Positions 1,923-64,000 of a stretch of DNA of 64,000 bases are shown here, in pieces. The stretch covers positions 1-64,000 of the forward strand of contig CAYMBN010000003.1 of NCBI GenBank assembly GCA_964388715.1. Reading direction: 5' to 3'. The notes below the pieces were generated by a model. That model did not search any database. It saw only the letters and a list, made by a program, of their open reading frames with translations, and was not told the DNA's origin. The translations under genes were made by a program, and so were the position numbers. This stretch comes from an uncultured Methanosarcinales archaeon (GTDB lineage Archaea; Nanobdellota; Nanobdellia; Woesearchaeales; CAYMBN01). Numbering within the stretch: the first letter of the stretch is position 1; each line of letters starts with the position of its first letter.

Positions 1923-2633
1923 TTAACCAACATAACTTAATTGTTTTTTTCTTTGTTCTTGTGTTGCTTTCTGGCCTTTTTGCATTAAACCTTTTAGTTT
2001 TTCTTCAAATTTCTCTGCTTCTGCTAGTAATGGTTTGTAATCTATTTTAAATCCAAGGTATTTGTCAAGTATTTCAACTATTTTTGCAGCTGCTTTACTA
2101 TCAGGCAGGTTACTTTGTGTTTCAACAAAGAAGCATGTAGAAATTAGTTTTTCTGCCTTTAACATGACTGAGCCTGTAACACCCATGATAATTCCTTCCT
2201 TGAGTGGTTTAAGTTTAAGATTTTTTAGTTTTTCTTCTGTTTTTTTATTGTTTGTGTAGTAATATACTGATGGTTGTAGAGATGGGACAGCACTTCCTAC
2301 TCCTTCTAAGCTGATAATTTCTTTTGCACCAACTTGTTTTGCAATGTTAACAATTGCATCAGCTATCTTCCATTCAGAGCCTGTTATTGATGTTATGCCA
2401 TGAATTAAAACTGCATTGTATTTTTTGTTATAGAATATTCCGATTGGTTCAACAACTTTGTTTTCGTGTATTGCGACCATTGCGGGAATTTTATCAAACC
2501 AGATTCTTCCGATTTGTTCACATTCTAAATGATCCATTAAGAATTCTGTTGCAATTGTACCAACAAGGCCAAATCCTGGGAAACCTTCAATAATGATTGC
2601 ATTCTTAGGTTTTTTATTGAGAGTAATATCCAT
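1923..2633 (-). CDS. PAC2-family proteasome assembly chaperone
   Basis: IEGFPGFGLVGTIA, PDSKAAA motifs, C-terminal SYVG tail; ATG 2633 behind GAGGTG. Confidence 0.9.
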   Translation of the reverse strand: MDITLNKKPKNAIIIEGFPGFGLVGTIATEFLMDHLECEQIGRIWFDKIPAMVAIHENKVVEPIGIFYNKKYNAVLIHGITSITGSEWKIADAIVNIAKQVGAKEIISLEGVGSAVPSLQPSVYYYTNNKKTEEKLKNLKLKPLKEGIIMGVTGSVMLKAEKLISTCFFVETQSNLPDSKAAAKIVEILDKYLGFKIDYKPLLAEAEKFEEKLKGLMQKGQKATQEQRKKQLSYVG

Positions 2634-15376: not shown

Positions 15377-16363
15377 ATGGATTTGTTTTACAAACAAGGT
15401 AAAGGAAGTAAATTCATTAAAAAAGTAGCAACATTAGATGATTATCCTAAAGTTGAAGGATATGATTTTAGTAAAAAGTTTAATTTTAATGAATTTATTG
15501 ATTCTTTTTTTTCTACTGGGTTTCAAGCGACAAGATTAAAGGTTGCAGTGGATGTAATCAAACAAATGCGTGATAACAAAGCAAAGATTACATTTGGTTT
15601 TACTTCTAACATGATTTCATCTGGTTTGCGTGAGATAATAACTTATCTTGTCAAGAATAAGATGGTTGATCTTATTGTGACTGCAGCTGGTGGGATTGAA
15701 GAAGATATGATCAAAACATTGAAACCGTTTGTGATTGGGACGCAAAGAATGCCTGGTTCTATGTTGTTAGAGAATGGAATTAATAGAATAGGTAATATAT
15801 TTGTACCTAATGATCGTTATCTTTACTTTGAAAAGAAGTTTGTGCCTTTTTTGGAGGAGGTATATAGGAAAAAGAAGTCAATAAGTGGTGTTGAGTTTTT
15901 TAGTGAGCTTGGTAAGTATGTTAATGATAAAAGTTCTTTTCTTTATTGGGCTTACAAGAATAAGATTCCTGTGATATGTCCTGCAATAACAGATGGTGCA
16001 TTAGGTGATATGTTTTATTTTTTTAAGAAAAAACACTCTGATTTTAATGTTGATGTTATAAGTGATATGGTAGAGATAGTTGATAAAACAATGAATGCAG
16101 AGAAATCTGGGTTGATTGTTTTGGGAGCAGGTGTTGTAAAACATCATGTTCTTAATGCAAACATATTCAGAGAAGGAGCTGATTATACTGTTTTGATTAA
16201 CACAGGGAATGAGTTTGATGGTTCTGATTCTGGAGCTGACCCTGAAGAATCTGTATCATGGTGTAAGATAAGGCCAAATTCAGAATATGTTAAAGTAAAT
16301 TGTGATGCAACAATTGCATTTCCTTTGATTGTGAAAGCTGGGTTTGTTGATTATAAAAGTTAA
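15377..16363 (+). CDS. dys: Deoxyhypusine synthase
   Basis: TSNMISSGLRE, GGIEED, NRIGNIFVPN, DGSDSGA, ESVSWCK active-site Lys. Confidence 0.96.
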   Translation: MDLFYKQGKGSKFIKKVATLDDYPKVEGYDFSKKFNFNEFIDSFFSTGFQATRLKVAVDVIKQMRDNKAKITFGFTSNMISSGLREIITYLVKNKMVDLIVTAAGGIEEDMIKTLKPFVIGTQRMPGSMLLENGINRIGNIFVPNDRYLYFEKKFVPFLEEVYRKKKSISGVEFFSELGKYVNDKSSFLYWAYKNKIPVICPAITDGALGDMFYFFKKKHSDFNVDVISDMVEIVDKTMNAEKSGLIVLGAGVVKHHVLNANIFREGADYTVLINTGNEFDGSDSGADPEESVSWCKIRPNSEYVKVNCDATIAFPLIVKAGFVDYKS

Positions 16364-17223
16364 TCATAAAGAACTTGTTGTAAACCTTGTTTTTTATATT
16401 CTAATCTGAGCAGGTCTAGTCCTCTTTTAATGATTTTCATCATATCATCAAGAGTTGTATTGAATTTTTCAGCTGTTTGGGTTAAGGTTTTATACTCACC
16501 ATCAGTAAAACCAAACTTATATTCAATTGCCTTTCTTGCTTTTTCATCTAATTCCGGTAAAGCACTACGTATTTTTTGCCTGAAAATATTATTAATTGCT
16601 TCTTGTTGAACATCTACTGAAGTATCAATGATTACATCTTCGAGATATTGGCCATCACCAGTTGGAGTGTAGAATGGTATTGGTGTTTTGGTAGCTGTCA
16701 TAACTTTCTTAACTTCTTCATAAGGTAGTCCTGATTCTTCAGAAAGTTCACGTAAACTTAGATGTCTTCCATATTGTTTTGCGAGTCTTGTTGATAATCT
16801 TTTTAGTTTACTTGCACTTTCCCAAATATGAACTGGTACTCTTATATCTCTTCCTTGGTATTGAATCTCTCTTCTAATTGCTTGTTTTGCATGCCAGAAA
16901 AGTTTACTCCTTAGTTGATCTCCTGTTTTTCCCTTAAAATTCTTAATTACTTTAATTAAAACTTTATTTGCAGCTTGAATATAATTAATAAAACTGTCTT
17001 GTGAATAAGAATATCTTTTTGCTACATTTACAGAAATCATTAGATAATCTTTTACTAATTTATGAACTGCTTCAGGATCTCCTTGTTTTGCTAATGCAAT
17101 TAATCTTTCTTTATCATGAGGATTAAGTCGTGGAATTCTTCTAACTTCATTAAGATATTGTTTGACAATATCTTCTGTGAAAGTGTCTTTTTCTCCTAGG
17201 AAATCTCTTATTCTGTATATCAT
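16360..17223 (-). CDS. Divergent sigma70-family protein (copy D)
   Basis: Region 1.2 DIVKQYLNEV, WHAKQAIRREI, RDIRVPVH, region 3 and region 4 KFGFTDGEYKTL; regions 2.2 and 4.2 degenerate. Confidence 0.88.
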   Translation of the reverse strand: MIYRIRDFLGEKDTFTEDIVKQYLNEVRRIPRLNPHDKERLIALAKQGDPEAVHKLVKDYLMISVNVAKRYSYSQDSFINYIQAANKVLIKVIKNFKGKTGDQLRSKLFWHAKQAIRREIQYQGRDIRVPVHIWESASKLKRLSTRLAKQYGRHLSLRELSEESGLPYEEVKKVMTATKTPIPFYTPTGDGQYLEDVIIDTSVDVQQEAINNIFRQKIRSALPELDEKARKAIEYKFGFTDGEYKTLTQTAEKFNTTLDDMMKIIKRGLDLLRLEYKKQGLQQVLYD

Positions 17224-17245
17224 TTTTAGAAAGAATAGGTGTTAT

Positions 17246-17253
17246 TTTATAAA
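17246..17253 (-). promoter_or_regulatory. Archaeal BRE/TATA promoter of sigma copy D
   Basis: GATAAAA-TTTATAAA starting 30 nt upstream of ATG 17223 (leaderless spacing). Confidence 0.65.
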
Positions 17254-17258
17254 TTTTA

Positions 17259-18152
17259 TCAATCTAAAGGATATTCTCTTATTTCTCTTATTCTGCTAGA
17301 GTGTCTTAGTCTTAGTGTTGCTTTTGCTTCAATACCAATTATTTCTTTTGTTGTTACTCCAAATTGTTTGCATACTTCTTCTAATGAGTGTTGTGTACCA
17401 TCTTCAAGACCAACTCTGTATTTGAGAATGTTTGCTTGTCTTTCTGTTAAAAAGTCTAAAACATCTTTAACTCCTACTTTAAGACTTGATTGGTATGCAT
17501 TATCCATTGGTGTTTGTGCTTGTCTTTGTTCAGGAAAATCTCCTAGCAAAGAATCTTGTTCACCTATTGGTGTTTCTAGTGAGATTGGATCCATTGCTGT
17601 TTTTAGGATTTCTTTTACTTTTTGGACTGGGAATTGAGCTGACCTTGCGATTTCTTCATGAGTTGGATTTCTTCTATAATCTCCTGTTAGTCTTTCTGTT
17701 ATTTTTCTTATTTTGTTTATATCATCAACAAAATTTCTAGGTATTCTAATTGTTTTTTCTTGCTCTGCAAGTGCTCTTGTGATTGCTTGTCTAATGTGCC
17801 AAATAGCATATGATTGGAATTTGTATTTAGGATTGTAATTATATTTTTCAATTGCTTTTATTAATCCTTGATTGCCTTCTGCAATTAAATCAAGGAGAAA
17901 ATATCTGTTGTTTGCATATCCTCTTACAATGTTTGGGACAAGTTTCAGGTTTGCATTGATAAGTTTTTGTCTTGCTTCAAGATTCATGTTTTTGAATAAT
18001 CTTTTTTCTTCTTGATAAGGAAGATTAGGAACTTCACTAACTGCTCTTAGATACATTTTCACTGAATCTTCTAAAGGTTGTTCTCTATTTTGATCTATGA
18101 CTCTTGTTTTTTGAGCTATTCTTCCCTGTCCTGGTTTATTGTTTTTATACAT
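17259..18152 (-). CDS. Sigma70-family protein (copy C), altered -10/-35 recognition residues
   Basis: [61 protein letters not shown]. Confidence 0.93.
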   Translation of the reverse strand: MYKNNKPGQGRIAQKTRVIDQNREQPLEDSVKMYLRAVSEVPNLPYQEEKRLFKNMNLEARQKLINANLKLVPNIVRGYANNRYFLLDLIAEGNQGLIKAIEKYNYNPKYKFQSYAIWHIRQAITRALAEQEKTIRIPRNFVDDINKIRKITERLTGDYRRNPTHEEIARSAQFPVQKVKEILKTAMDPISLETPIGEQDSLLGDFPEQRQAQTPMDNAYQSSLKVGVKDVLDFLTERQANILKYRVGLEDGTQHSLEEVCKQFGVTTKEIIGIEAKATLRLRHSSRIREIREYPLD

Positions 18153-18197
18153 TTTATTAAGATATCGCCTCTAATTTATAGTGAATTATGGCTTTTA

Positions 18198-18205
18198 TTT
18201 ATAAA
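18198..18205 (-). promoter_or_regulatory. TATA box upstream of sigma copy C
   Basis: TTTATAAA in the 82-bp intergenic region; second TATAAAT at 18174-18180. Confidence 0.5.
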
Positions 18206-18234
18206 TTTAATTGAAAAATAGTGGTTTTTTAGAA

Positions 18235-19350
18235 TTAGTCTAAGTAATAATCTCTTAATTCTTTTGCTCTGCTTGGGTGTCTTAGTTTTCTTAATGCTTT
18301 TGCTTCAATTTGTCTGATACGTTCTCTTGTGACACCAAATAATTTACCTACTTCTTCTAATGTGTGTGGCACACCATCTTCTAAACCAAATCTATATTTG
18401 AGTACTTTTGCTTCTCTATCTGTTAATGTTCCTAGAACTCTTCTAATTTGTGCTTTGAGCATTGATTGAAATGCACCGTCCATTGGACTTTCTGAATCCT
18501 TATCTTCAACAAAATCAGCAATAGTACTATCACCTCCTCCAACAGGTGTTTCTAAAGGAACTGGATCTTTACCTCTTTCTAGAGCTTGTTGAACTTTGTA
18601 AATGGGTTGTCCTGAAGCTTTTGCAATTTCTTCATAAGTTGGATCTCTGCCATATTCTTGGGTTAATTTTCTTGCTGTTTTTCTTAATTTATTTATTGTT
18701 TCAACCATGTGAACAGGAATCCTAATTGTTCTTGCTTGGTCTGCAATTGCTCTTGTAATTGCTTGTCTAATCCACCAGATGGCGTATGTTGAAAATTTGA
18801 AACCTTTTCTGTATTTAAATTTTTTAACAGCTTTTAATAATCCTCTATTCCCTTCTTGAATTAAGTCAAGGAAAAGTAATCCTCTTTTTAGGTATTTTTT
18901 TGCAACAGATACAACTAATCTTAAATTTGCATTGATTAGTTTTTGTCTTGCTTCATAACTCCCTTGTTCAATAAGTTCTGCTAAATCTCTTTCTTCTTTT
19001 TCATTAAGAAGTGGAACTTCACCAATTGATTTTAAATACATTTTAACTGAATCTTCTAATGTGGCTAGTTCAGTGTGTTGATCAGGTGCTTGTTTTTTTG
19101 GTTTTTTTGTATATGGTTTTTCTTCTTTGTATCTAACTTCAACACCAGCTTTTAATATCTCTTCAAGAACATATTCCATTTGTGTTGAAGTGATTCCATC
19201 TGGTAAATCATCACTTAACCAATCATATTTTAAAGAATTTCCTGATTGTTTACCTTGTTGAATATAGGTTTTAATATATGGATTAAGTGCTTTTTCCCAT
19301 TGTGATCTTTCAGTAATATCCTCTAACTTTGTTTTTTTTGGATTTGACAT
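18235..19350 (-). CDS. rpoD: RpoD/SigA-like primary sigma70 factor (copy B)
   Basis: Region 1.1-like [105 protein letters not shown]. Confidence 0.97.
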
Positions 19351-19385
19351 TCTTCTATCTATGACTTGCTGAATTGAATTCTATA

Positions 19386-19393
19386 TTTATAAG
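19386..19393 (-). promoter_or_regulatory. TATA box upstream of sigma copy B
   Basis: CTTATAAATA ~43 nt upstream of ATG 19350. Confidence 0.55.
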
Positions 19394-19440
19394 GTTAATT
19401 GAGGAATATTTTAGTTTTTACCAAGAATTAGGGACAAATT

Positions 19441-21495
19441 TTAACCTAAATAAAATTCTCTTAATTGTTTGCTTCTGCTCGGATGTCTTAGTTTTCTTAA
19501 TGCTTTTGCTTCAATTTGTCTGATACGTTCTCTTGTAACACCAAATATTTTGCCAACTTCTTCTAATGTATGTGGACAACCATCTTCTAAACCAAAACGG
19601 TATCTGAGGACTTTTGATTCTCTTTCTGTTAAAGAATTAAGAACTCTCCTTATTTGTGCTTTTAACATTGATTGGAATGCAGTGTACATTGGATCTTCTG
19701 TTTTTTTATCTTCAACAAAATCTCCTAATGTTGAATCTTCGTCACCAATTGGTGTTTCTAATGATATTGGGTCCATTGCTGTTTTTAGGATTTCTTTTAC
19801 TTTGTGTACTGGAAGTTGAGCTGCTTTTCCAATTTCTTCATGAGTAGGATCTCTACCATATTCTTGTGTTAATTTTCTTGCTGTTTTTCTTAGTTTGTTT
19901 ATTGTTTCTACCATGTGAACTGGTATTCTTATTGTTCTTGCTTGGTCTGCAATTGCTCTTGTTATTGCTTGACGTATCCACCAGATTGCGTATGTTGAGA
20001 ATTTGAAACCTTTTCTGTATTTGAATTTTTTAACAGCTCTGATTAAGCCTTGGTTGCCTTCTTGAATTAGGTCCAGGAAAAGTAAACCTCTTTTTGTGTA
20101 TTTTTTTGCAACAGATACTACTAAACGTAGATTTGCCTCGATTAGTTTTGTTCTTGCTTCTAAGTTTCCTTGTTCAACAAGCACTGCTAACCTATATTCT
20201 TCTTCTACTTCAAGAAGTGGAACTTCACCAATTGCTTTTAAATACATTTTGACTGAATCTTCAAGAGCTTCTTTACTTAATTCAATACCAAACTGATTTA
20301 CTTTTTGTTTTCTTCTTCTTGCTGCTTTTAGTAAGGTATGTTTTCTTCTTTGTTCATCTTGTACTTCAATACCTGCTTCCATTATTGATGCAAGAAGTTC
20401 ATTAAGTGTGACTGTTTCAACTGCATCTGGTAGGTTATCATTAATCCATTTGTATGAAATAACTCCTGTTTTTTGTCCTTCTGCAAGGCATTGGTCAAGG
20501 AATATTTGCATACTTTTTTCTGAAGATACCTTTTTGTATTCAACATATTCTTCAGCAACTTTTTTAGCAGTTGTGCTAATTTCTTGATCTGTTAAAGGTT
20601 TTGTATATTGTTCAATATCTTGTTGTTGTTGCCAGTTATTTTTTACATCTTTAATGAATTTGTCAACTTGTGCTTCGAGTTTTGATTCATCTCTGTCTTT
20701 TAGAAGCCAGGTGAAGTCATAATCCTTTTTGAGAAAATAGTATGCTTTATTGACCTTTTCTAATCCTCTAAGTTTTTTTAAAAAACTTTCAGCATCATAT
20801 TCTTTTTTACCAGAAACCCTTAGTTTAATACCTGTGAGATTCTTTAAAACATTTTTAACAGATAGTTCGTTTTTTTCTTCTTCTGTAGACATACTTTTAG
20901 CTAGATGTGTATTAATACCATAACATTCTAATGTGTACCAATTAATCTCATCTCCATATTGTTCAAGTTCTGTTAGAAGTCTGTTAATGATTGTTGCGTA
21001 TTGTTTAGCTGTGTATTCTGGTTGAGGTTGTTTTTTTGCTTTGTATTCTAACAGGTTGGTTACAGTTGCTGTTTTTGTTACTGGTTCTTTTGTTAAGACT
21101 TGTTTTAATCTTTTGAGACTTTTTGTTGGGATGACATCATACTCTTTTCCTTTGTATTCAACTGTTTCAACTACATCTTCTTCATATAATTCTGCAACTT
21201 GTTGAATTGTGAGATTGAGTGCTTTTGAAATTTCTCTGATATTACAATACTTGATTAAAGTAAGTGCTTCTGAATCAAATCTTTCAAATACATCTCCTAG
21301 CATATGGTATAATAAACTTATTCCTAAGAATTGGTTATCTTCTGATAATATGTGATCAAGATCTGCTTTTAGGCCTTTTCTATACTTGAATGGTAGAATT
21401 CCCATTGGGTATAATTCATATGGGTTGATCTCTGTTTTTAATGGTGTAACTGTGCCTACTTTAGACTGATATTCTCCTCTTTTTGGTTTAACCAT
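19441..21495 (-). CDS. rpoD: RpoD/SigA-like sigma70 factor with ~320-aa N-terminal extension (copy A)
   Basis: C-terminal regions 1.1 ([18 protein letters not shown]), 1.2, 2, 3, 4 intact; extension has HTH-like [20 protein letters not shown]. Confidence 0.96.
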
Positions 21496-36002: not shown

Positions 36003-36102
36003 NNNNNNNNNNNNNNNNNNNNNNNNNNNNNNNNNNNNNNNNNNNNNNNNNNNNNNNNNNNNNNNNNNNNNNNNNNNNNNNNNNNNNNNNNNNNNNNNNN
36101 NN
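36003..36102. other. Assembly gap (100 N)
   Basis: Run of N between two convergent genes whose stop codons are missing. Confidence 0.99.
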
Positions 36103-40089: not shown

Positions 40090-40371
40090 TTACAATTTGT
40101 TAAGAGTTATCTCAATTGTAGATACTCTTACTTGTTTACCTTCTTTGTTTTCAAATTCTTCGCTGTTGATTGCTATACCTTTTACAGCTATTTGACCTAC
40201 AAGAAATCTTTTACTTGCAACCTCTGCGATATCTACTGCTCTGCTGATAAACTTTCCTCTTGCTTTTATAATCACTTCATCTACATTTTTTGTGGTAAAC
40301 TGCATTACTATTCCTGTTACATAATTCATAAATGGTTTTCCACCAACAAATATTGTGTTGTCTGCGCCCAT
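40090..40371 (-). CDS. alba: Chromatin protein Alba
   Basis: KPFMNYV, IKARGKFISRAVDIAE, VSTIEITL. Confidence 0.97.
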   Translation of the reverse strand: MGADNTIFVGGKPFMNYVTGIVMQFTTKNVDEVIIKARGKFISRAVDIAEVASKRFLVGQIAVKGIAINSEEFENKEGKQVRVSTIEITLNKL

Positions 40372-40383
40372 TTTTCATCCCCC

Positions 40384-40575
40384 CTATTGTTCCTTGTTTT
40401 TGGTTAATCTAGTTGCATAACCAGCGATAACATTTCTAATTTTTTTAGATTTGACATCAGTTAGCTGGTTCACTATCTTTTTATTTTCTTCAAAATTATC
40501 TTTAAACTTGTCACTATACTTTTCCATCATGTCTTGTGTTATTCTCTTTGTCATTTGTGTTTTTATTCTTCCCAT
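40384..40575 (-). CDS. rps17e: 30S ribosomal protein S17e
   Basis: MGRIK, FEENKK, SKKIRNVIAGYATR. Confidence 0.96.
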   Translation of the reverse strand: MGRIKTQMTKRITQDMMEKYSDKFKDNFEENKKIVNQLTDVKSKKIRNVIAGYATRLTKNKEQ

Positions 40576-40673
40576 TGTATATTCTGTGCTTTTAATAGGG
40601 GTTGCTTATTTAAATTTTGTGGTTTTTATGAGGAAAATAGTAAGATTTAAATATATAACTTGTATAGATATAT

Positions 40674-40767
40674 TTGTTGCTGATGGAGCTACTTAGACAT
40701 TGATTTTGTTTCGGCAATTTTGATAAATGAGTCTTCGGATTCATCTAAGCTCTGACATTGGTAATAA
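40674..40767 (+). ncRNA. Unannotated structured RNA with a canonical bulge-helix-bulge motif and two UUCG hairpins
   Basis: Own TATA (TTTAAATA 40646-53); 12-bp outer stem, GAGC/GCTC central helix, TAC and TGA bulges, TTAGA/TCTAA helix; ATGAGTC-TTCG-GATTCAT. Confidence 0.75.
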
Positions 40768-40820
40768 GTTTCTATTTTAACATAAATCTTATAAATGAGA
40801 TGTATTAATATACTATCTAT

Positions 40821-40913
40821 GGGCCTATGGTGTAATGGATTAGCACAATTGGCTTCGGATGTGTTTATCACAGATGATACCAGTTAATCAGGGTTCGAAT
40901 CCCTGTAGGCCTA
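40821..40913 (+). tRNA. tRNA-Arg(UCG) with 20-nt intron at 37/38 (40859-40878)
   Basis: GGGCCTA/TAGGCCT acceptor, ATTGG-CTTCGG^A-CCAGT anticodon arm, GGTTCGAATCC T arm, relaxed BHB; TATA at ~40788-96; no encoded CCA. Confidence 0.93.
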
Positions 40914-40961
40914 TTTTTTCTATGAAAAATTTTATAAATAAACTGTGGTTTTGATGCAAAC

Positions 40962-45532: not shown

Positions 45533-45569
45533 AAATTTTTATATTAAATAATAATTACTTTCTATTAAT

Positions 45570-45775
45570 GGGCTGATAGCTCAGCCTGGTGTGGTTTGTA
45601 TTTATACAAACTACGGGCATTAGAGCGTTCGGTTGGCAATCGAGAGGCCTCGGGTTCGAATAAGTGTTAGAGTTGAAGAAAGTGATGTTTTGATAACATT
45701 AAAGCTTTCGGGTTGATAGTGGAATTCAAAACGTAAACTGCTCTCTCTTCACTTGCGAAGGTCCCGATCAGTCCA
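45570..45775 (+). tRNA. tRNA-Ala(GGC) with introns in the D loop (45590-45620, 31 nt) and T loop (45661-45761, 101 nt)
   Basis: GGGCTGA/TCAGTCC-A with G3:U70; TTCGG-TTGGCAA-TCGAG; removing both introns gives AGCCTGGTAGAGC and GGTTCGAATCCCG (74 nt). Confidence 0.92.
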
Positions 45776-45786
45776 TTAAATAAAAA

Positions 45787-52918: not shown

Positions 52919-52949
52919 TATAAAGAAAGAAGGATAGGTTATTTAAAAG

Positions 52950-53034
52950 GTTTTCGACGAAGTCGAAACTCTTTGAAATCAAAGATTTCTAAGATGCTCA
53001 GAAACTCCTTGCGTTTCCGACACATTTAGAAATT
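52950..53034. repeat. Intergenic multi-hairpin palindromic element
   Basis: TTTCGAC-GAA-GTCGAAA; GAAATC-AAA-GATTTC; ATTTCTAA...TTAGAAAT enclosing GAAAC/GTTTC. Confidence 0.6.
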
Positions 53035-53035
53035 T

Positions 53036-53614
53036 TTAATTTCTAAAGGTTTTCTTTAATATATTGGAAAGGTTTTTGTCTTTCTTATACTCTTTAGCTG
53101 CTTTAATTACCTGTTTTTTGTTGATTTTGAAACCTTTTTTATTAAGGAGTTTTTGGTTTCTTCTGATATATTGACAGAATTGTGTGACATTTTTTGGATC
53201 TTTTGTGTAATAACAACGTTCAAAGTCAACAAGATGTGCTTTTAATCTTGGTGTTATAATGATGTGTTTGAATGGGTTGTGCATTTCTAGTTTGTTAATG
53301 CCTAATTTATCCATTTTATAACATTGTTCAAAGACTTGTTTTAGGATTTTTTTGATTTTTGTCTTTGATTTTTCTTTTTCAAGAAATTCTTTGATAAAAA
53401 TGCCATTGATAAATTTGTATGTAAAGGAATCTTTTGTGTGTTTAAGTATTTTTGGACCAATTTTGTGTTTATTTAGGATTTTTAAGAATTTTATTTCGTT
53501 TTGAATTCTGTCAATAGCTTCTGATCTGGGAAGTTTCTTTTTTATTGCAACTTTTATTCCTTTGTACTTTGTAAGATAAATTATTCCTCGATGACCATGC
53601 ATGAATTCCTTCAT
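53036..53614 (-). CDS. Atypical Ser/Thr kinase (RIO/Bud32-like, COG2112-type)
   Basis: GHRGIIY, VAIKK, IGPKI, LVDFE. Confidence 0.78.
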   Translation of the reverse strand: MKEFMHGHRGIIYLTKYKGIKVAIKKKLPRSEAIDRIQNEIKFLKILNKHKIGPKILKHTKDSFTYKFINGIFIKEFLEKEKSKTKIKKILKQVFEQCYKMDKLGINKLEMHNPFKHIIITPRLKAHLVDFERCYYTKDPKNVTQFCQYIRRNQKLLNKKGFKINKKQVIKAAKEYKKDKNLSNILKKTFRN

Positions 53615-56771: not shown

Positions 56772-56816
56772 AATATAAGTTTAAATATAATGTGATTTAA
56801 AAGTTTTTTCTCTTTT

Positions 56817-56949
56817 GGTATGTGCATAGCACCATGCCTGTAAAAAACACGGAAACTTGTTATTAAGCATTAAGGTTTTCGACACAATGGTCTTACGAAC
56901 CAAACACTTGTTTTTGACAAAAAGTTGGCATAGGTGCTATACACATACT
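56817..56949 (+). repeat. ~135-nt structured intergenic element, copy 2
   Basis: GGTATGTGCATAGCACC / GGTGCTATACACATACT terminal stem; compensatory changes relative to copy 1. Confidence 0.85.
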
Positions 56950-57019
56950 CTCTATTCACTAGATTACAATAATATTTATAAGTGAATTCTGTATTTTATT
57001 GAACTAAGTGGGGGTTTTG

Positions 57020-60000
57020 ATGAAGAAAAAGGTTATTTTGTTTATGTTAATAATAGTTCTAATTATAGGTCTTTTTTTTGTGAATTTTTTGGTTTTTGAG
57101 AAATTGAGTAAAGAAAAAGTTATACAAAAGAAAATTGTGCAAAGATCTATTCCTTCTGATTCAATTGTTACACTAAAAAAAGATACACCTAAGGAAGTTA
57201 AAGAAATATTTTCAAATGATTTTGAGGAAATATCTGATAATGTGTATAAGAAAAAGAGTTCTTCAAGATCATCAGGAGGATCATCAGGTGGTTCTTCTGG
57301 TGGAGGAAGTGGTGGAGGTGGTTCTGTTAGTTATCCTGAGGAAACATCTTTACCAGCTGATCCTAGTACTTATGTTCAAGTTGAACATGATCAAATGATT
57401 GAGTTATTGGATTTTGAACCTTTAGTTTATGATGTTTTTTTTAATACAAATAGTGTTGATTGGAATATTGAAAAAACAAATGCTCATAATGTATGGGATG
57501 AAACAAAAGGGGATGATATAAAAGTTGCAGTGCTTGATACTGGTGTTGCAGTGCATGATGATTTGGTTATTTCTGGTGGTGTTTCTTTTGTTGATGATAA
57601 TTATTATGATATGATTGGCCATGGTACAATGGTTAGTGGAGTTATTGTTGGAGTTGCACCTGAGATTGAACTTTATTCTGTGAAAATAATGGGTTATGAA
57701 GGTAAATTAAGTAATGCATTGCTTGGTTTGAGATGGGCAATTGATAATAATATGGATATTGTTACAATGAGTTTTGGTTTTGATGATTATTCTCTTGCAT
57801 TTGAACAATTGGTTAGTGAAGCTAGTGAAAATGGAATTACATTAGTTGCAGCTGCTGGTAATACTTATGGTGAGTTAATGTATCCTGGAAAATATGATGA
57901 AGTGATTTCAGTTGGTGCAGTTGATGAGAATAATCTTGTTGCTAATTTTAGTAGTCAGGGTGAAGAGTTAGATTTTGTTGAGCCTGGTGTTAATATAACA
58001 TCAACATATCTTAACAATGGTTATGCAAAAGCATCTGGTACAAGTTTTGCAGCACCTCATTTAGCAGGGATTGTTGCTTTGTTAAAATCTTTTGGAGAGG
58101 AAAATGTTAAACAAAGGTTGATTAATGATGTTGTTGACTTAGGTCTTGAAGGAAAAGATAATCTTTATGGTTATGGTTTAGGTATTGTTAATTTAACACA
58201 GAATGGAAACATTGTTGTAGAATTGTCTGGGGAATCAAGAATTGAGGTTTACAAAGATGATGTTTTATTATATAATTTAAGTTTTTTAGAAAGTATAAAT
58301 TATTCTTTATCACTTGAACCAGGAACATATTTAATTAAAAGGTATATTGGTAATAAAAAAGTTGAAAAGTTTGTGACTGTTGGAAAAAGTGAAGAAGTTG
58401 TTGTGCCATTGTATGTTAATACATATGCAAAAGATTTACGTGCAGATGCACCATGGCGTGTTAAAAATAAAGATTCAGTTATTCCTTTTGTTTTTATTAT
58501 TGCTGATGCTGGTGTAAATGATATTGACCAGTTACATAATATTAAGATTTATGATGTAACTAATGGGGAAAGTTTGGTTGCATATTATGATTTTAATGAT
58601 ATTACAATTGGCGATGATTATGAAGAAAAAATTCTTTGGATCTATGAAACACACAAGGATGAAGTAGGGAATGATATTACTCCTTCATTGTATGGATATA
58701 ATAATGGTGATGATATTAGGTTTAGGGTTGACTTTTCATATAATGATGTAGGTGAAGAAACTAATTCTATTTATCTACAGGTTCATGTTGCTGAGTCAGA
58801 AATGCCTAGAATGGATAATTGGTATTATGGTGATGTTAATTATCATTCTTTATATACAAAAAATATTGCTAATTTTGGTGCGCCATTACATACAAGTTCA
58901 ATAATGGCTGATGCACTTGAGATGGATTGGTTGTTTGTTACAGATAGTTCATATGATCTTGATGAAGATTCATTTAGTTACAAGATATTTTATGATGGTC
59001 AGTGGCATGTTAAAGGTGATACAGGAAAAACAAGATGGGAAAATTTGCAACAGGAAATTGTTGAATATTCAACTCAAGAGTTGGGTTTGTTTTTAGGAGA
59101 AGAGGTTGCAACAAAACGATTAGGAACTGGTGACTGGGATGTTAACAAGACAATACATATGTTGGTTTATGATAATGATTATATTGAGGCAAAAGGTGAT
59201 GGTTCACAATGGGTTGGTGAAGAGCCAAGAGCAATGTTAGAAGTTTTAGAAGAAGTTGAAACTGGTATTTCTTATGCATCACATCCGTATGAAACATTAA
59301 GTGGTTGGAGTCGAGGTGGTTATTGGCATAATTCTGAGATTGAGAATGCTAAAGAAAATGAACATTTTAAAGGTTTACAGATATGGAATACAAGAACTAC
59401 TAAAACAAGTTCTAATCAGGATAATCCTTTTGATTCATGGCAGGATGATAATGAGTTTTTTAGTGGTCTTGAAGATGGGATTAAAGAGTGGGATTTTGTT
59501 TTAGTAGATGGTTTAAGAAATCCTGGTTATAGAAAGGTTTTTGTGAGTGGTGGTTCTGATTCACATGGTGATTTTAATTATATGACTTACAGACTTGATG
59601 ATTTGAATTCTATTGCTGTTGATAATGCGTTTGGTAAAGTAAGGACAGTAGCTTTTGCTCCTGATAAATCTAAGTCTAATATTGTGAATGCATTAGCAAA
59701 TGGTAATTCAATTATAACAGATGGGCCATTGGTTGTGTTTGGTGTTGATGATAAGAATGTTGTTGTAGGAGATGATTTTGAATTTGTTTCTGGTGATACT
59801 TTTAATATTAAATGGAGTTCAACAAATGAATTTGGAAATGTAGATGAGATTAAAATATATAGAGCAGGTAGTTATGATTGTTTACCTTTGTCACCTGTGT
59901 TAACTCTTAATCCAGGTAGTTTGAGTGGGGAGCAAGAAGTTAATATTGGTGGGATATTGCCTGATTATAAAGGTGTTTTTTATTATAGGATAGAAGCGTT

Positions 60001-63000
60001 TACTGATAAAGGATATAGGGTTTATACAAATCCAATTTGGGTTGAGAATAATTTAGGAAGTAGTGTTGTGCCTAATAAATGTAATGAGATACGTGGGCAA
60101 GTTTTTGATAAGGATCATGTTGCAATGTTTGGGTTAACAGTTAAATTGGATTGGTCTGATAATGTTTCTATACTTGAATCTGGATTATATTCTGCATGTG
60201 AGTATGATAATTATTTTTCAGATAAAACAGATGAGAATGGTTATTATTCTTTTTCGAAAAAGATAGTTGAGAATTGTGTTAATTTTAAACCAGAAGCTAA
60301 GATTAAGTTTTTTTCTGGTGATGAGTTTGTTACTGAAATGATTTTTGTTTATAATCAGAGTGATTATGTTTATGACAAGGAGATGGATTTTGTGCATCAT
60401 GTTTTTGATAGTATGTTTTGGCATGAACAAGGTAACAAAACTTCAATGTTAAAAGTGCCTAGTGTGATTGGGGTTGATAATAAACCTATTCTTTTGGTGC
60501 ATGGTGTTTTTGGTAAAGATGGGTATTGGAAAAATGGTTTTGTTGATAAGTTAAGTGGGGAAGGTTTTGATGTTTGGGAAATTTATTATCCTAATAATGA
60601 TGATATAATAAAAAATTCTGAGATTCTTGGAAGAAATGTTGATTATTTGTTGAGTAATTATGATTCTGATAGTGTTAATATTGTTGCGCATTCAATGGGA
60701 GGTCTTGTTTCTCGTGCTTATACTCTTGGTTTAGGAGATTATAATTATAAAAATGATGTTGATAAATTATTAATGTTAGGTACGCCTAATTTTGGTAATG
60801 CATGGACAAAAGGTGTTGTTGATGGATGGGAATTACCAATATATGGGACTTATACTAATGCAGAAGAAAATGCAATTGGAAGAGGGTTTGATCCTGATGC
60901 GCCTGTGTATAAACAAATGAGTCCTGGTAGTAGGTTTTTGTGGGACTTGAATTACAAAAATGTTAATACTGATGTTGATCACTTGGTTGTTGCTGGGACT
61001 GATTCTAGTATTGTATGGTTTAATTTAGAGGATTTTATGCACGAGGAAACAAAGGATGATAAAGATGATGGTGTTGTTGCAGTTGCAAGTGCATCATTAC
61101 TGAATAAGAATGTTTCTCTTGCAACTATTAATAAAAATCATTTAACAGAAACAGTGTATGATAATGGTCGATTGATAAATATTGTTAAAGCTTTTGTTAA
61201 TGGACAACAGATTCCTATTGGAAATGATGGTGTTGATGAATTTTTTGATTGGCAAACTGTTACTGGTAATGATTTGGTGGATAATGGTTATGGTATGGGT
61301 GGCATAATTATGAAAATACTTGATGAGAATGGTACTGAAAAAGCAGGAGGGATTAGTTTGGTTAATGATGGGTTAACTGTTGTTCTTGATATTAATCAAA
61401 ATCCTGCACTAAATGAAACAGTACCTGCTGATGAGTTTGAAGGGCCTAGTATTTATTATCATTATAATAAAGAGGATGATGATCAAGATGCTTATCTTTC
61501 AATTCCAAATGGTGAATATAATATTTTTGAAGATAGTATTAATATTGGAAGTGTTACTGTTGAACCTGGTAGAACAGTTGTTGTTAAGATTGGAAATATA
61601 AAGCCTGTGATAAGTTTTGCAGGAAGTGTTTTTGGTAATGTAGGTGAACAAGTTAATTTTGATGCAGATGTTGAAGGTTTTATTGTGAACTATGAATGGG
61701 ATTTTGATGGTGATGGGATTTATGATTATAATTCTGAGTCAAGTGTTGAGACTACTTATGTTTATGATTTTTCTGGCACTTATGATGCTGTATTAAGGGT
61801 TACTGATAATAATGGTTTAGTGGATCAAGAATCGTTAAAAGTTTATGTGTATGATAATTCTGATCCTGTTTTTGTTTCAGGGCCAAATGTGCAAGCTTAT
61901 TCAAGGATGGTAAAGATTGGTTTTGTTGCAAATGAACCTGTGAAAGTTGAGATTGATTATGGTTTAACTGATTCATATGGTATGACAAAAACTTTTTATG
62001 GATACCAAAGAGAACATAAAAGAACTTTGGTTGGACTTGAACCTTCTACTGTGTATCATTACAAAATAAAGGTGTATGATTTCAAAGATCATTTGGTTGA
62101 GTCTGATGATCATTTTTTTACAACTGAAGATGAAGAGGTTGTTGTGATCAGTTCAACAGGTGGTTATGATTTTGATGGAACACATTCTTACACAAATAAA
62201 AGATTGTATTTAGATCTTACTGGATCTGGAACTGATGTGAATATTAATGGTATGCTTGACCTTACCTCTGTGTATATTGATTCAAGTTATGGATATCATC
62301 TTAAGATGGATGGTGGTAATTTGATTGTTGATGGTGCTGAATTTGAGAATGTTCTTAGTTTGGATTTGTTGGATGATAATTCTTTGGTAATTAATAATTC
62401 TAAGTTTTTTCAGGGGGACTCTTCAAATTCTGTGTTTAATCTAGAAGCTCCAATAATAAAAATTGATAATTCTTTGATTGATAATTCTTATTCCACTTCT
62501 GATTTTAATTGGGAGCATCATATTACTATTACTTCAAACAATTTAGAAATTGTTGATTCTGAACTTAATGCTGAAACAGTACAAACAGTTGATCATCTTA
62601 ATCAGATTAGAGCTATTATTGGGATTATTTCTGATGAAGTTAATATTAAGAATTCAAAATTAGTTAGTTATGCTTATATTCCTGCTAACAAGTATCAATA
62701 TTCAAATGTGGTTATAACTTCACCTAAAATAAATCTGCTTGATTCTGATGTGCGGTCATTAGCAAATGAAAACTTGGCAAGTGATAAAGATGATAATATT
62801 TTTGTTAGGTTAACTGCAACTAATGAACTTAATTTAATTGGAACTACTCTTTATAGTGATTATTTTATGGACATTAATGGTGGAATAATTGATGCTGAAG
62901 ATAGTTTGATTAATGCAAGAAACCCTTATAATTATGCAGGTGCAACTATTGATTGTAGTGATTTGTTATTTGAGAATTCAGATTTATGGTTTAGTAAAGG

Positions 63001-64000
63001 AAAGGTTGATTGTGATGGCGTTTTGTTAAAAGATTCTGAATTGACAGGAGGTTTTGTTTTGGATATTGATGGTGAGAATGATAATATGGTTGTTGGTTCT
63101 GTAATTAAGTTAGAGAAAGATGCTGGTACAATAGATCTTATTGGAAAGAGTAATGTGATTAATAATTCAAATATTTCTTTGAATAGGTATTATACTGTAA
63201 TAAGAATTGATTCTACAGAAGATCTTGTTTTGTCATCTAGTGTGATTAATTCATCTTATTATCCAACTGGTTCAACAGGGCAGGCTTTGAATTTGTATGG
63301 GAATAATATTTTTGTTGAAGATAGTTTTTTGGAATCATCTGCTCACAGAGAAACTTCTGGAGGTTCAACAGGATCTATTATTAGGTTTATAGGAGAAAAT
63401 GCAGAAGTTGTTGGGTCAACAGTTTATACATCTGCTTATTGTCAATATGAAAGTTGTTTGTCTGAGATGAATTTTGATTTGAATAATTTAAAGATTGTTA
63501 ATTCTGAAATTAATTCATTTAAGGTTGGAGGTTTTGCAGATACTGATATTGAGATTAGTAATTGTGATGTTGTTGTTAATTCTTCACGTATTGTTTCTTC
63601 AACTGATGAAACTATTTCAGCTAATGAGTTTAAGGTTTATGATTCTGTTATTGGGATGAGTTTGGAGAGTTTTAATGGTAATGATAAGGTTTATCTTTAT
63701 AATACAAGTGTTGAAGTGGTTCCAAGTGAGAGTGCTTTGGTTAGAAAATATTGGTATCTTGATTTAAGTGTTGAAGAAGGTGCTGGTATGGTTTTAAGTA
63801 ATTCTGAGCAAATGTTTGTTAATGATGGAAGGTTAGTTGTTTTAGGTTCTAAAATTGATTCTTCAGGGGAGGATGTTCTTGATCAGAACTTGATTGTGAG
63901 TAAATTAGGTTATACTACACACAATGAAATGTTTAATATTTTTGATAATATGGTTAAAAATGTTGTTTTGGATAAAATTAATTATGCTCCTGTTTTAGAA
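57020..64000 (+). CDS. Giant multidomain surface hydrolase (>2327 aa, truncated): S8 subtilase, PHP/CehA-like, lipase-type alpha/beta hydrolase, PKD, FN3, beta-helix-like
   Basis: Same frame as ATG 57020 for VLDTG (57530), HGT (57620), GTSFAAPH (58037), WYYGD (58820), GGSDSH (59549), AHSMGG (60686), WDFDGDG (61697) and the last codons of the window; N-terminal TM. Confidence 0.9.
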   Translation, partial: MKKKVILFMLIIVLIIGLFFVNFLVFEKLSKEKVIQKKIVQRSIPSDSIVTLKKDTPKEVKEIFSNDFEEISDNVYKKKSSSRSSGGSSGGSSGGGSGGGGSVSYPEETSLPADPSTYVQVEHDQMIELLDFEPLVYDVFFNTNSVDWNIEKTNAHNVWDETKGDDIKVAVLDTGVAVHDDLVISGGVSFVDDNYYDMIGHGTMVSGVIVGVAPEIELYSVKIMGYEGKLSNALLGLRWAIDNNMDIVTMSFGFDDYSLAFEQLVSEASENGITLVAAAGNTYGELMYPGKYDEVISVGAVDENNLVANFSSQGEELDFVEPGVNITSTYLNNGYAKASGTSFAAPHLAGIVALLKSFGEENVKQRLINDVVDLGLEGKDNLYGYGLGIVNLTQNGNIVVELSGESRIEVYKDDVLLYNLSFLESINYSLSLEPGTYLIKRYIGNKKVEKFVTVGKSEEVVVPLYVNTYAKDLRADAPWRVKNKDSVIPFVFIIADAGVNDIDQLHNIKIYDVTNGESLVAYYDFNDITIGDDYEEKILWIYETHKDEVGNDITPSLYGYNNGDDIRFRVDFSYNDVGEETNSIYLQVHVAESEMPRMDNWYYGDVNYHSLYTKNIANFGAPLHTSSIMADALEMDWLFVTDSSYDLDEDSFSYKIFYDGQWHVKGDTGKTRWENLQQEIVEYSTQELGLFLGEEVATKRLGTGDWDVNKTIHMLVYDNDYIEAKGDGSQWVGEEPRAMLEVLEEVETGISYASHPYETLSGWSRGGYWHNSEIENAKENEHFKGLQIWNTRTTKTSSNQDNPFDSWQDDNEFFSGLEDGIKEWDFVLVDGLRNPGYRKVFVSGGSDSHGDFNYMTYRLDDLNSIAVDNAFGKVRTVAFAPDKSKSNIVNALANGNSIITDGPLVVFGVDDKNVVVGDDFEFVSGDTFNIKWSSTNEFGNVDEIKIYRAGSYDCLPLSPVLTLNPGSLSGEQEVNIGGILPDYKGVFYYRIEAFTDKGYRVYTNPIWVENNLGSSVVPNKCNEIRGQVFDKDHVAMFGLTVKLDWSDNVSILESGLYSACEYDNYFSDKTDENGYYSFSKKIVENCVNFKPEAKIKFFSGDEFVTEMIFVYNQSDYVYDKEMDFVHHVFDSMFWHEQGNKTSMLKVPSVIGVDNKPILLVHGVFGKDGYWKNGFVDKLSGEGFDVWEIYYPNNDDIIKNSEILGRNVDYLLSNYDSDSVNIVAHSMGGLVSRAYTLGLGDYNYKNDVDKLLMLGTPNFGNAWTKGVVDGWELPIYGTYTNAEENAIGRGFDPDAPVYKQMSPGSRFLWDLNYKNVNTDVDHLVVAGTDSSIVWFNLEDFMHEETKDDKDDGVVAVASASLLNKNVSLATINKNHLTETVYDNGRLINIVKAFVNGQQIPIGNDGVDEFFDWQTVTGNDLVDNGYGMGGIIMKILDENGTEKAGGISLVNDGLTVVLDINQNPALNETVPADEFEGPSIYYHYNKEDDDQDAYLSIPNGEYNIFEDSINIGSVTVEPGRTVVVKIGNIKPVISFAGSVFGNVGEQVNFDADVEGFIVNYEWDFDGDGIYDYNSESSVETTYVYDFSGTYDAVLRVTDNNGLVDQESLKVYVYDNSDPVFVSGPNVQAYSRMVKIGFVANEPVKVEIDYGLTDSYGMTKTFYGYQREHKRTLVGLEPSTVYHYKIKVYDFKDHLVESDDHFFTTEDEEVVVISSTGGYDFDGTHSYTNKRLYLDLTGSGTDVNINGMLDLTSVYIDSSYGYHLKMDGGNLIVDGAEFENVLSLDLLDDNSLVINNSKFFQGDSSNSVFNLEAPIIKIDNSLIDNSYSTSDFNWEHHITITSNNLEIVDSELNAETVQTVDHLNQIRAIIGIISDEVNIKNSKLVSYAYIPANKYQYSNVVITSPKINLLDSDVRSLANENLASDKDDNIFVRLTATNELNLIGTTLYSDYFMDINGGIIDAEDSLINARNPYNYAGATIDCSDLLFENSDLWFSKGKVDCDGVLLKDSELTGGFVLDIDGENDNMVVGSVIKLEKDAGTIDLIGKSNVINNSNISLNRYYTVIRIDSTEDLVLSSSVINSSYYPTGSTGQALNLYGNNIFVEDSFLESSAHRETSGGSTGSIIRFIGENAEVVGSTVYTSAYCQYESCLSEMNFDLNNLKIVNSEINSFKVGGFADTDIEISNCDVVVNSSRIVSSTDETISANEFKVYDSVIGMSLESFNGNDKVYLYNTSVEVVPSESALVRKYWYLDLSVEEGAGMVLSNSEQMFVNDGRLVVLGSKIDSSGEDVLDQNLIVSKLGYTTHNEMFNIFDNMVKNVVLDKINYAPVLE

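Follow-up and report, generated by a model that had tools for sequence, protein, structure and literature searches.

Between rps17e and a gene for tRNA-Arg(TCG), the 64,000-nucleotide stretch of DNA analyzed here (the window) carries a short segment whose RNA would fold into a bulge-helix-bulge (BHB) of the kind cut by the archaeal tRNA-splicing endonuclease (EndA). The question raised by this locus is whether the segment is an RNA gene in its own right and, if so, whether its transcript is cut and joined in the manner of a tRNA intron. A first-pass annotation had read it as a stand-alone RNA gene that would release a 63-nt circular RNA; of that interpretation, the substrate geometry, the non-tRNA nature of the flanks, and the promoter-like TATA box of its own stood, while no conservation was found in the 80 related loci searched. 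We conclude that the locus is probably a real small RNA gene restricted to its lineage. Excision by the endonuclease and circularization of the RNA are plausible on the modeled fold, and to the complete reading, an independent RNA gene whose product is cut and circularized, we give somewhat less than an even chance.

Fold and splicing motif of the element

The element is noncoding and intergenic; no notable ORF covers the locus, and small ORFs of 6 and 17 codons in the region were set aside as lacking support. Its GC content is 36%, compared with 23% and 16% in its flanks and 25% in intergenic DNA overall. The TATA box, stems, bulges, hairpins, and box-like words named in the first-pass annotation were all recovered in place from the sequence and by folding. 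The parts of the element, together with the neighboring tRNA gene that serves for comparison, are as follows.

40672-40685 paired with 40756-40769, plus strand: outer helix H1, 14 bp including G-U pairs, pair probabilities 0.66-1.0
40686-40689 (GAGC) paired with 40749-40752 (GCTC), plus strand: central 4-bp helix H2, pair probabilities 0.86-0.90
40690-40692, plus strand: 5' bulge TAC, with a predicted cut between A40691 and C40692
40753-40755, plus strand: 3' bulge TGA, with a predicted cut between G40754 and A40755
40693-40697 (TTAGA) paired with 40744-40748 (TCTAA), plus strand: inner helix H3, 5 bp, pair probabilities 0.25-0.64
40699-40724, plus strand: hairpin A, with a 5-bp lower stem, a 2x2 U-rich internal loop, a 4-bp upper stem, and UUCG at 40710-13
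40727-40744, plus strand: hairpin B, with a 6-7-bp stem and a C(UUCG)G loop at 40734-37
40692-40754, plus strand: segment of 63 nt that, from the geometry, would be excised
40821-40914, plus strand: tRNA-Arg(TCG), interrupted at 37/38 by an intron of 20 nt (40859-78), with a separate TATA box at 40788-95; found by ARAGORN and Rfam

The outer helix, first described as 40674-85/40756-67, extends to 40672 and 40769. The UUCG-capped upper part of hairpin A spans 40706-17, and the pair A40727-T40744 of hairpin B competes with the last pair of H3. Two box-like words lie within the element, CTGATGG at 40680 and CTGA at 40752. The description of the motif as a canonical hBHBh' was borne out: the 3-nt bulges lie on opposite strands with exactly 4 bp between them, and the handedness is that of a pre-tRNA, the 5' strand running through outer helix, central helix, bulge, and inner helix as it does in the tRNA-Arg intron of the window. 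An alternative register, GGAG/CTCT, would give a 65-nt product.

The minimum-free-energy fold of 40672-40769 (-26.1 kcal/mol) contains a 5-bp central helix in which U40690 pairs with A40748 (pair probability 0.71); the canonical 4-bp conformer, at -25.2 kcal/mol, lies 0.9 kcal/mol higher. This bears on the possibility that the locus gives rise to a real, transcribed, linear stem-loop RNA of ~95 nt that is no substrate of the endonuclease, the resemblance to a BHB being incidental, for example because the 5-bp conformer predominates. The minimum-energy structure and its extra pair favor such an RNA, and the promoter, the strand-specific fold, and the GC contrast described here would fit it equally well. 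However, the canonical conformer is nearly isoenergetic, and the motif is perfect, whereas hand parsing gave relaxed motifs for the tRNA-Arg intron and for the T-loop intron of tRNA-Ala; cutting by broad-specificity enzymes would be expected, and no alternative function is indicated. We regard an uncut linear RNA as rather unlikely.

The structure exists on the plus strand alone and rests on G-U pairs. The fold contains 8 to 9 of these, which become A-C mismatches on the other strand or in DNA, and the reverse complement folds to only -8.4 kcal/mol (z-score, +0.44; 134 of 200 shuffles were as stable).

Cut positions were predicted with a rule that places cleavage after the second base of each 3-nt bulge. 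Applied to the tRNA-Arg gene, which lies 150 nt downstream of the candidate, the rule gives exactly the intron borders called by ARAGORN (between 40858 and 40879); the central helix of that intron's motif contains one U-U, which makes the motif a relaxed one. For the candidate, the same rule reproduces the earlier estimate of a 63-nt product, whose excision is itself a prediction.

A second intron-bearing tRNA gene, tRNA-Ala(GGC), lies unannotated on the plus strand at 45570-45776 with its own TATA box at 45538 and was missed by both ARAGORN and Rfam. It carries insertions of 30 nt in the D-loop (about 45590-45619) and of 101 nt in the T-loop region (about 45662-45762); when these were removed by script, ARAGORN called a 75-nt tRNA-Ala in 49 of 49 border variants. 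Hand reading gave a relaxed motif for the T-loop intron. Local alignment of the candidate with the tRNA-Ala introns was not above shuffles, 27 of 300 of which reach the score. Because two tRNA genes in the window carry introns, the host must have splicing machinery, and an endonuclease that handles noncanonical, relaxed introns should find a perfect canonical motif an easy substrate; genes for EndA and RtcB are not encoded within the window. The host, a Woesearchaeota-like DPANN archaeon, splices tRNA introns. Relatives of its rps17e protein number 189 in the protein collection; the best nonidentical one shares 71% identity, and those with names belong to Woesearchaeota/Nanoarchaeota.

Five related loci (L024, L026, L033, L038, and L042) carry, downstream of rps17e-Alba, intron-bearing tRNAs that ARAGORN labels "tRNA-SeC (tca)." In L033, L038, and L042 these sit at the place that tRNA-Arg(TCG) takes in other loci, and in L024 and L026 they lie 1.5-1.7 kb downstream. 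The motif of the L038 tRNA reads the anticodon TCG, and the label probably reflects mis-parsing of the intron rather than a suppressor tRNA.

Promoter, transcript ends, and local gene order

The signals that could make the element a transcription unit of its own, and its divergent neighbor, are the following.

40384-40575, minus strand: rps17e, the divergent neighbor (Pfam PF00833, E 2.6e-16), with its own TATA box at 40607-14 on the minus strand
40639-40653, plus strand: promoter read from the sequence, a purine-rich BRE-like stretch and TATA box TTTAAATA (TATA at 40646-53)
40676, plus strand: predicted transcription start at the foot of the stem, ~30 nt downstream of the TATA box's first T
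40770-40779, plus strand: T-rich stretch TTCTATTTTA, a possible, weak archaeal terminator

The separate TATA box that had been noted ahead of the RNA was confirmed at 40646-53, at the distance that this genome uses. Of 49 genes called by a crude procedure, 16 have a TATA word that starts at -30 (11 cases) or -31 (5 cases) from the ATG, and from this placement it follows that the genome uses leaderless mRNAs with a fixed TATA-to-start distance of ~30 nt. The same distance rule puts the start of tRNA-Arg 2-3 nt before G40821. With a crude PWM built from 13 such promoters, the candidate's promoter site ranks 556 among 127,940 positions and scores 4.7, against 5.7 for the tRNA-Arg promoter and 4.2 for that of tRNA-Ala. 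The candidate's TATA box is an inverted copy of the rps17e TATA box 30 nt away (inverted repeat I16), which suggests divergent promoters. Termination in archaea follows an oligo-T rule, the basis on which TTCTATTTTA is read as a putative terminator. On these signals, the balance tips toward a real transcription unit.

The promoters of four tandem sigma-70-family genes in the window (16363-21495, minus strand) were also inspected. The largest of these genes has regions 1.1 to 4, and the contig is otherwise archaeal. An archaeal TATA word stands at -30 in two of the four, 16363-17223 and 19444-21495, and at -53/-52 and -42 in the other two. Sigma-70 genes have already been reported as prevalent in Woesearchaeota (PMC8204110). 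Elsewhere in the window, a run of 100 N bases occupies 36003-36102, and in 56772-64000, a region of strong GC skew (0.37-0.42), the crude caller finds no complete ORF; a single very long ORF beyond 56.8 kb may continue past the edge of the window.

Gene order around the candidate was compared with that of 80 related loci, fetched with an alignment of 40 rps17e relatives; all are from Woesearchaeota/Nanoarchaeota MAGs, with a best identity of 67%. In 72 of the 80 loci, Alba lies on the strand of rps17e and no more than 3 kb behind it, and in 21 of the 80 a tRNA-Arg follows rps17e-Alba on that strand within 1.5 kb, often past a small conserved ORF. In the window, tRNA-Arg lies upstream of and divergent from rps17e, so that rps17e-Alba is inverted relative to tRNA-Arg (40090-40914). 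Because this order is inverted with respect to relatives, the candidate sits at a junction that is new in the lineage of the window. None of the window's other neighbor genes is shared with the 80 loci. That relatives have a small ORF, and no RNA, upstream of tRNA-Arg counts against reading the candidate as an independent gene.

The small ORF itself, ~40-50 codons long, lies between Alba and tRNA-Arg in many relatives (for example, L034 10505-10887, L045 10503-10729, and L068 1750-1935) and is absent from that place in the window. It ends in a motif of Tyr, Ile/Val, Trp-Val-Gly, an acidic residue or Gln, Gly, two residues, and Pro-Phe.

Chance, known RNA families, and the search for relatives

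How readily such a motif arises by chance was assessed with a strict scanner that accepts a 4-bp central helix and 3-nt bulges with an outer helix of at least 4 bp and an inner helix of at least 3 bp. It returned 702 matches on the plus strand and 188 on the minus strand of the window, among which the two registers of the candidate rank first and second. The candidate's pair-weighted score is 47; in dinucleotide shuffles of the whole window, on both strands, a score of 47 was reached in 4 of 100 and a score of 45 in 9 of 100. Across the 80 related loci (990,539 bases, both strands; 10,266 matches), the maximum was 43, a score shared by two intron-bearing tRNA-Arg genes (L004 and L007) and a low-complexity, AT-rich match (L018). 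The plus-strand fold has a z-score of -2.47, with 4 of 200 shuffles equally stable. Among 242 intergenic 98-nt windows of the genome, several places reach z-scores of -3 to -3.9, so that the candidate's z-score by itself is unexceptional for the intergenic DNA of this genome; two of these low-scoring places are real or likely RNAs. When motif matches in the window scoring at least 28 were required to have a TATA word 22-40 nt upstream, the candidate (in both registers) and one weak match remained. Six motif matches with an upstream TATA word occur in the related loci; all are weak, and none was convincing.

These figures bear most directly on the view that there is no functional RNA here, and that the element is an inverted repeat that arose by chance or persists as a relic in intergenic DNA that has been rearranged. 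Shuffled sequence does occasionally attain the motif score, comparable fold z-scores occur elsewhere in intergenic DNA, the searches described below found neither conservation nor a paralogue in the 80 loci and the window, and the junction is a new one in a lineage whose relatives, in 21 of 80 loci, keep tRNA-Arg downstream of rps17e-Alba on the same strand. However, a top-ranking motif, an intergenic site, a properly spaced promoter-like site, and a fold confined to the plus strand would coincide with a probability that we roughly estimate at ~1e-4 (0.04 x the intergenic share x about 0.03). The arms also match poorly as a DNA repeat, with 8-9 transitions, all of which are G-U on the plus strand. 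On balance we hold a chance or relic origin to be rather unlikely, if slightly less so than an uncut linear RNA.

A strong hairpin of ~70 nt was noted on the minus strand at 52922-53038 (98-nt window, -27.5 kcal/mol; z-score, -3.6), between two minus-strand genes and just upstream of the TATA box of the next gene. It has no Rfam match at gathering thresholds and could be a terminator-like element or a small RNA.

The first-pass annotation had not recognized an RNA family, and a check against Rfam 15 agreed: no family overlaps the candidate, even at an E value of ≤10. Over 40550-40950, Rfam at an E value of ≤10 gave 4 matches, all in the tRNA-Arg region, and over the whole window at gathering thresholds it gave nothing at the candidate locus. 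No rRNA family matched in the window at gathering thresholds or in 40550-40950 at an E value of ≤10. The element is not an H/ACA RNA, since no ACA follows 40769 and the sole ACA (40755-57) lies within the stem. The statement that the flanks are not a tRNA also held, in that ARAGORN finds tRNA-Arg alone in the window and the Rfam tRNA model has no match in 40672-40769 at an E value of ≤10. That the same window holds a two-intron tRNA-Ala overlooked by both programs leaves some room for a fragment of a tRNA gene that is split, permuted, or interrupted by several introns and escapes tRNA finders. However, neither the exons nor the insert has a T-arm or anticodon-arm signature, and 63 nt is too short for a permuted tRNA; in the doubled (circular) 63-nt segment, ARAGORN found 0 tRNAs in its standard and mitochondrial modes. 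We regard a disrupted tRNA gene as highly improbable.

The alternative that had been offered, a box C/D guide sRNA, fared poorly, as neither the box spacing nor the K-turn geometry fits. As an atypical C/D RNA, the element would use CTGATGG 40680-86 as box C, TTGA 40700-03 as D', TTGATAA 40720-26 as C', and CTGA 40752-55 as D. Such words do lie at the ends and in the middle, the D box CUGA is exact, and, on a reading of the sequence, the putative C'/D' could form tandem sheared G-A pairs with A-U replacing the usual G-C. However, the C-like box agrees with RUGAUGA at 5 of 7 positions, and where spacers of about 12 nt are expected the element has 13 and 25 nt, the second being mostly a 7-bp hairpin. 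No terminal K-turn with a 3-nt loop and an unbroken stem can form. The stem that would come after such a loop has mismatches, so that the box bases stay fully paired, as ordinary stem bases, in the stable fold. Complements of the presumed guides had no exact target in the window or the 80 loci, the scope of these data (rRNA lies outside it), besides the opposite strand of the gene itself and one 12-nt match in L018. A strict C/D pattern run over 81 sources gave 1 match, in a coding-like repeat, so that the lineage offers no reference set. A K-turn in hairpin A was also considered but is not claimed, since tandem G-A pairs are possible there but the loop has 4+2 nt rather than a 3-nt bulge. We judge a guide RNA of this class to be very unlikely.

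Searches for relatives of the candidate covered the window, the 80 related loci, and mobile elements. In the 80 loci, blastn-short gave just 12-17-nt word matches and nhmmer gave 0 matches. A covariance model (R1), made from the single sequence and the canonical structure, found the self match alone in 1,054,539 bases at an E value of ≤10; with filters off on the window, the next best match scored 14.1 bits (E 0.25) and lay inside coding sequence, so that no paralogue was found. Phage and plasmid collections gave no match at an E value of ≤1. The covariance search beside rps17e that the first-pass annotation had proposed thus returned no relative in the 80 loci. Because these relatives are remote (their rps17e is no more than 67% identical) and do not share neighbors, the result falls short of the lack of conservation that the first-pass annotation had named as refuting, and the absence of homologues speaks weakly against function; with no homologue found, the fold is without covariation support. 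When the 63-mer was tried for antisense pairing against pre-tRNA-Arg, rps17e, Alba, and the downstream ORF, it did no better than shuffles (106-152 of 200), so that complementarity to neighboring transcripts points to no function.

Two look-alikes among the related loci were examined and rejected. L054 shares the 9-mer TGATGGAGC upstream of tRNA-Arg, which has 7 occurrences in the 80 loci, approximately the number expected by chance; its fold gives no support for the motif, and its 3' arm overlaps the TATA box of the tRNA. L078 has a GC-rich, motif-flanked 100-nt insert (1971-2093, minus strand) that is noncoding and without an Rfam match. Its position matches that of the candidate in the window, 98 nt ahead of a divergently oriented rps17e. 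This insert was rejected as an analogue, with a z-score of -1.06, 34 of 200 shuffles as stable, and a minimum-energy fold that lacks the motif.

Comparison with known endonuclease substrates

In the reading that we prefer, the locus would be a small RNA gene of ~95-100 nt, starting near 40676 from its own TATA box and probably ending at the T-rich stretch after 40769. The two termini of the transcript would pair as a long processing stem that presents the canonical BHB. Cleavage by EndA behind the second base of either bulge would free the 63-nt segment, which an RtcB-type ligase would then close end to end. In circular form the RNA would keep both UUCG-capped hairpins, and its 5-bp stem would be capped by a loop of 7 nt that spans the junction. 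The flanks, about 16 and 20 nt long, look like processing arms and nothing more. Our best guess for its role is a stable protein-binding or regulatory small RNA restricted to the lineage. One frame of the 63-nt circle is open all the way round, as would be expected by chance about half the time.

There is precedent for such processing outside tRNA genes. In published reports, EndA cuts non-tRNA substrates whose products circularize, among them rRNA stems, an intron in a Haloferax 5' UTR, and a permuted SRP RNA (PMC7714728, PMC7994747, PMC4731332). The natural substrates known for the enzyme are few; those described comprise tRNA introns, 16S/23S processing stems, the cbf5 mRNA intron, the HVO_1309 5' UTR, a 16S-like precursor, and permuted SRP RNA and tRNAs (PMC7714728, PMC7994747, PMC12558985, PMC3326292, PMC4731332). 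The candidate has the same bulges, 4-bp spacing, handedness, and cut positions as archaeal tRNA introns, in which EndA excises the intron from an hBHBh' motif and RtcB circularizes it, and its predicted product is close in size to the intron of Sulfolobus tRNA-Trp, for which a stable circle of 65 nt is described (PMC3326292). Unlike tRNA introns, however, the candidate has "exons" of ~16 and 20 nt that form a stem alone, a promoter of its own, and flanks that are not tRNA.

A second comparison is with the 16S/23S processing stems. Circular intermediates have been described for archaeal pre-rRNA, and there too a long helix of the 5' and 3' flanks presents the motif, so that what it encloses becomes the product while the flanks are lost (PMC12558985, PMC12918454). 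The candidate differs in that its enclosed RNA is 63 nt long and not rRNA, and in that it forms a monocistronic unit. The permuted SRP RNA of Thermoproteus and permuted tRNA genes resemble the candidate in being free-standing, with ends that form the motif and with cutting followed by ligation into a circle (PMC7994747, PMC4731332, PMC3978253); in these cases the circle restores a known RNA, whereas the circle predicted for the candidate matches none. In Haloferax, a 46-nt segment of the HVO_1309 5' UTR was found as a circle and cut in vitro, and Crenarchaeota have an intron in the cbf5 mRNA (PMC7714728). Like the candidate, these introns are small, motif-flanked segments of a non-tRNA transcript (PMC7714728), but by the same account they leave a functional spliced mRNA, whereas the candidate's transcript has no downstream ORF and tRNA-Arg is separately promoted. 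Box C/D sRNAs, including those of the tRNA-Trp intron and circular or permuted forms, share with the candidate a similar length, box words at the ends, and an association with circular forms (PMC7994747, PMC3491384), but the cuts predicted for the candidate would separate its C box from its D box. By analogy, then, the candidate would work like a miniature rRNA processing stem, and on this comparison it belongs to none of the substrate kinds described. Among the titles and text passages searched on stand-alone BHB RNAs, none describes a promoter-driven BHB small RNA gene of this kind.

A stronger form of this reading, which we think quite improbable, is that the locus is a free-standing, promoter-driven "intron-only" gene whose sole product is a stable 63-nt circular RNA made by the tRNA-splicing machinery. 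If so, the RNA could act in trans; more boldly, the locus might be a free-living master copy of the mobile BHB introns found in the tRNA genes of the lineage.

The prediction made by our preferred reading is sharp, in that it names one exact back-splice junction (40754 to 40692). If it is true, a dedicated gene that uses the motif solely to release a small circular RNA would constitute a new class of EndA substrate, and its RNA would provide a naturally occurring small circle from DPANN archaea, a group in which RNA biology has hardly been studied. Such a gene could also bear on the origin and spread of BHB introns.
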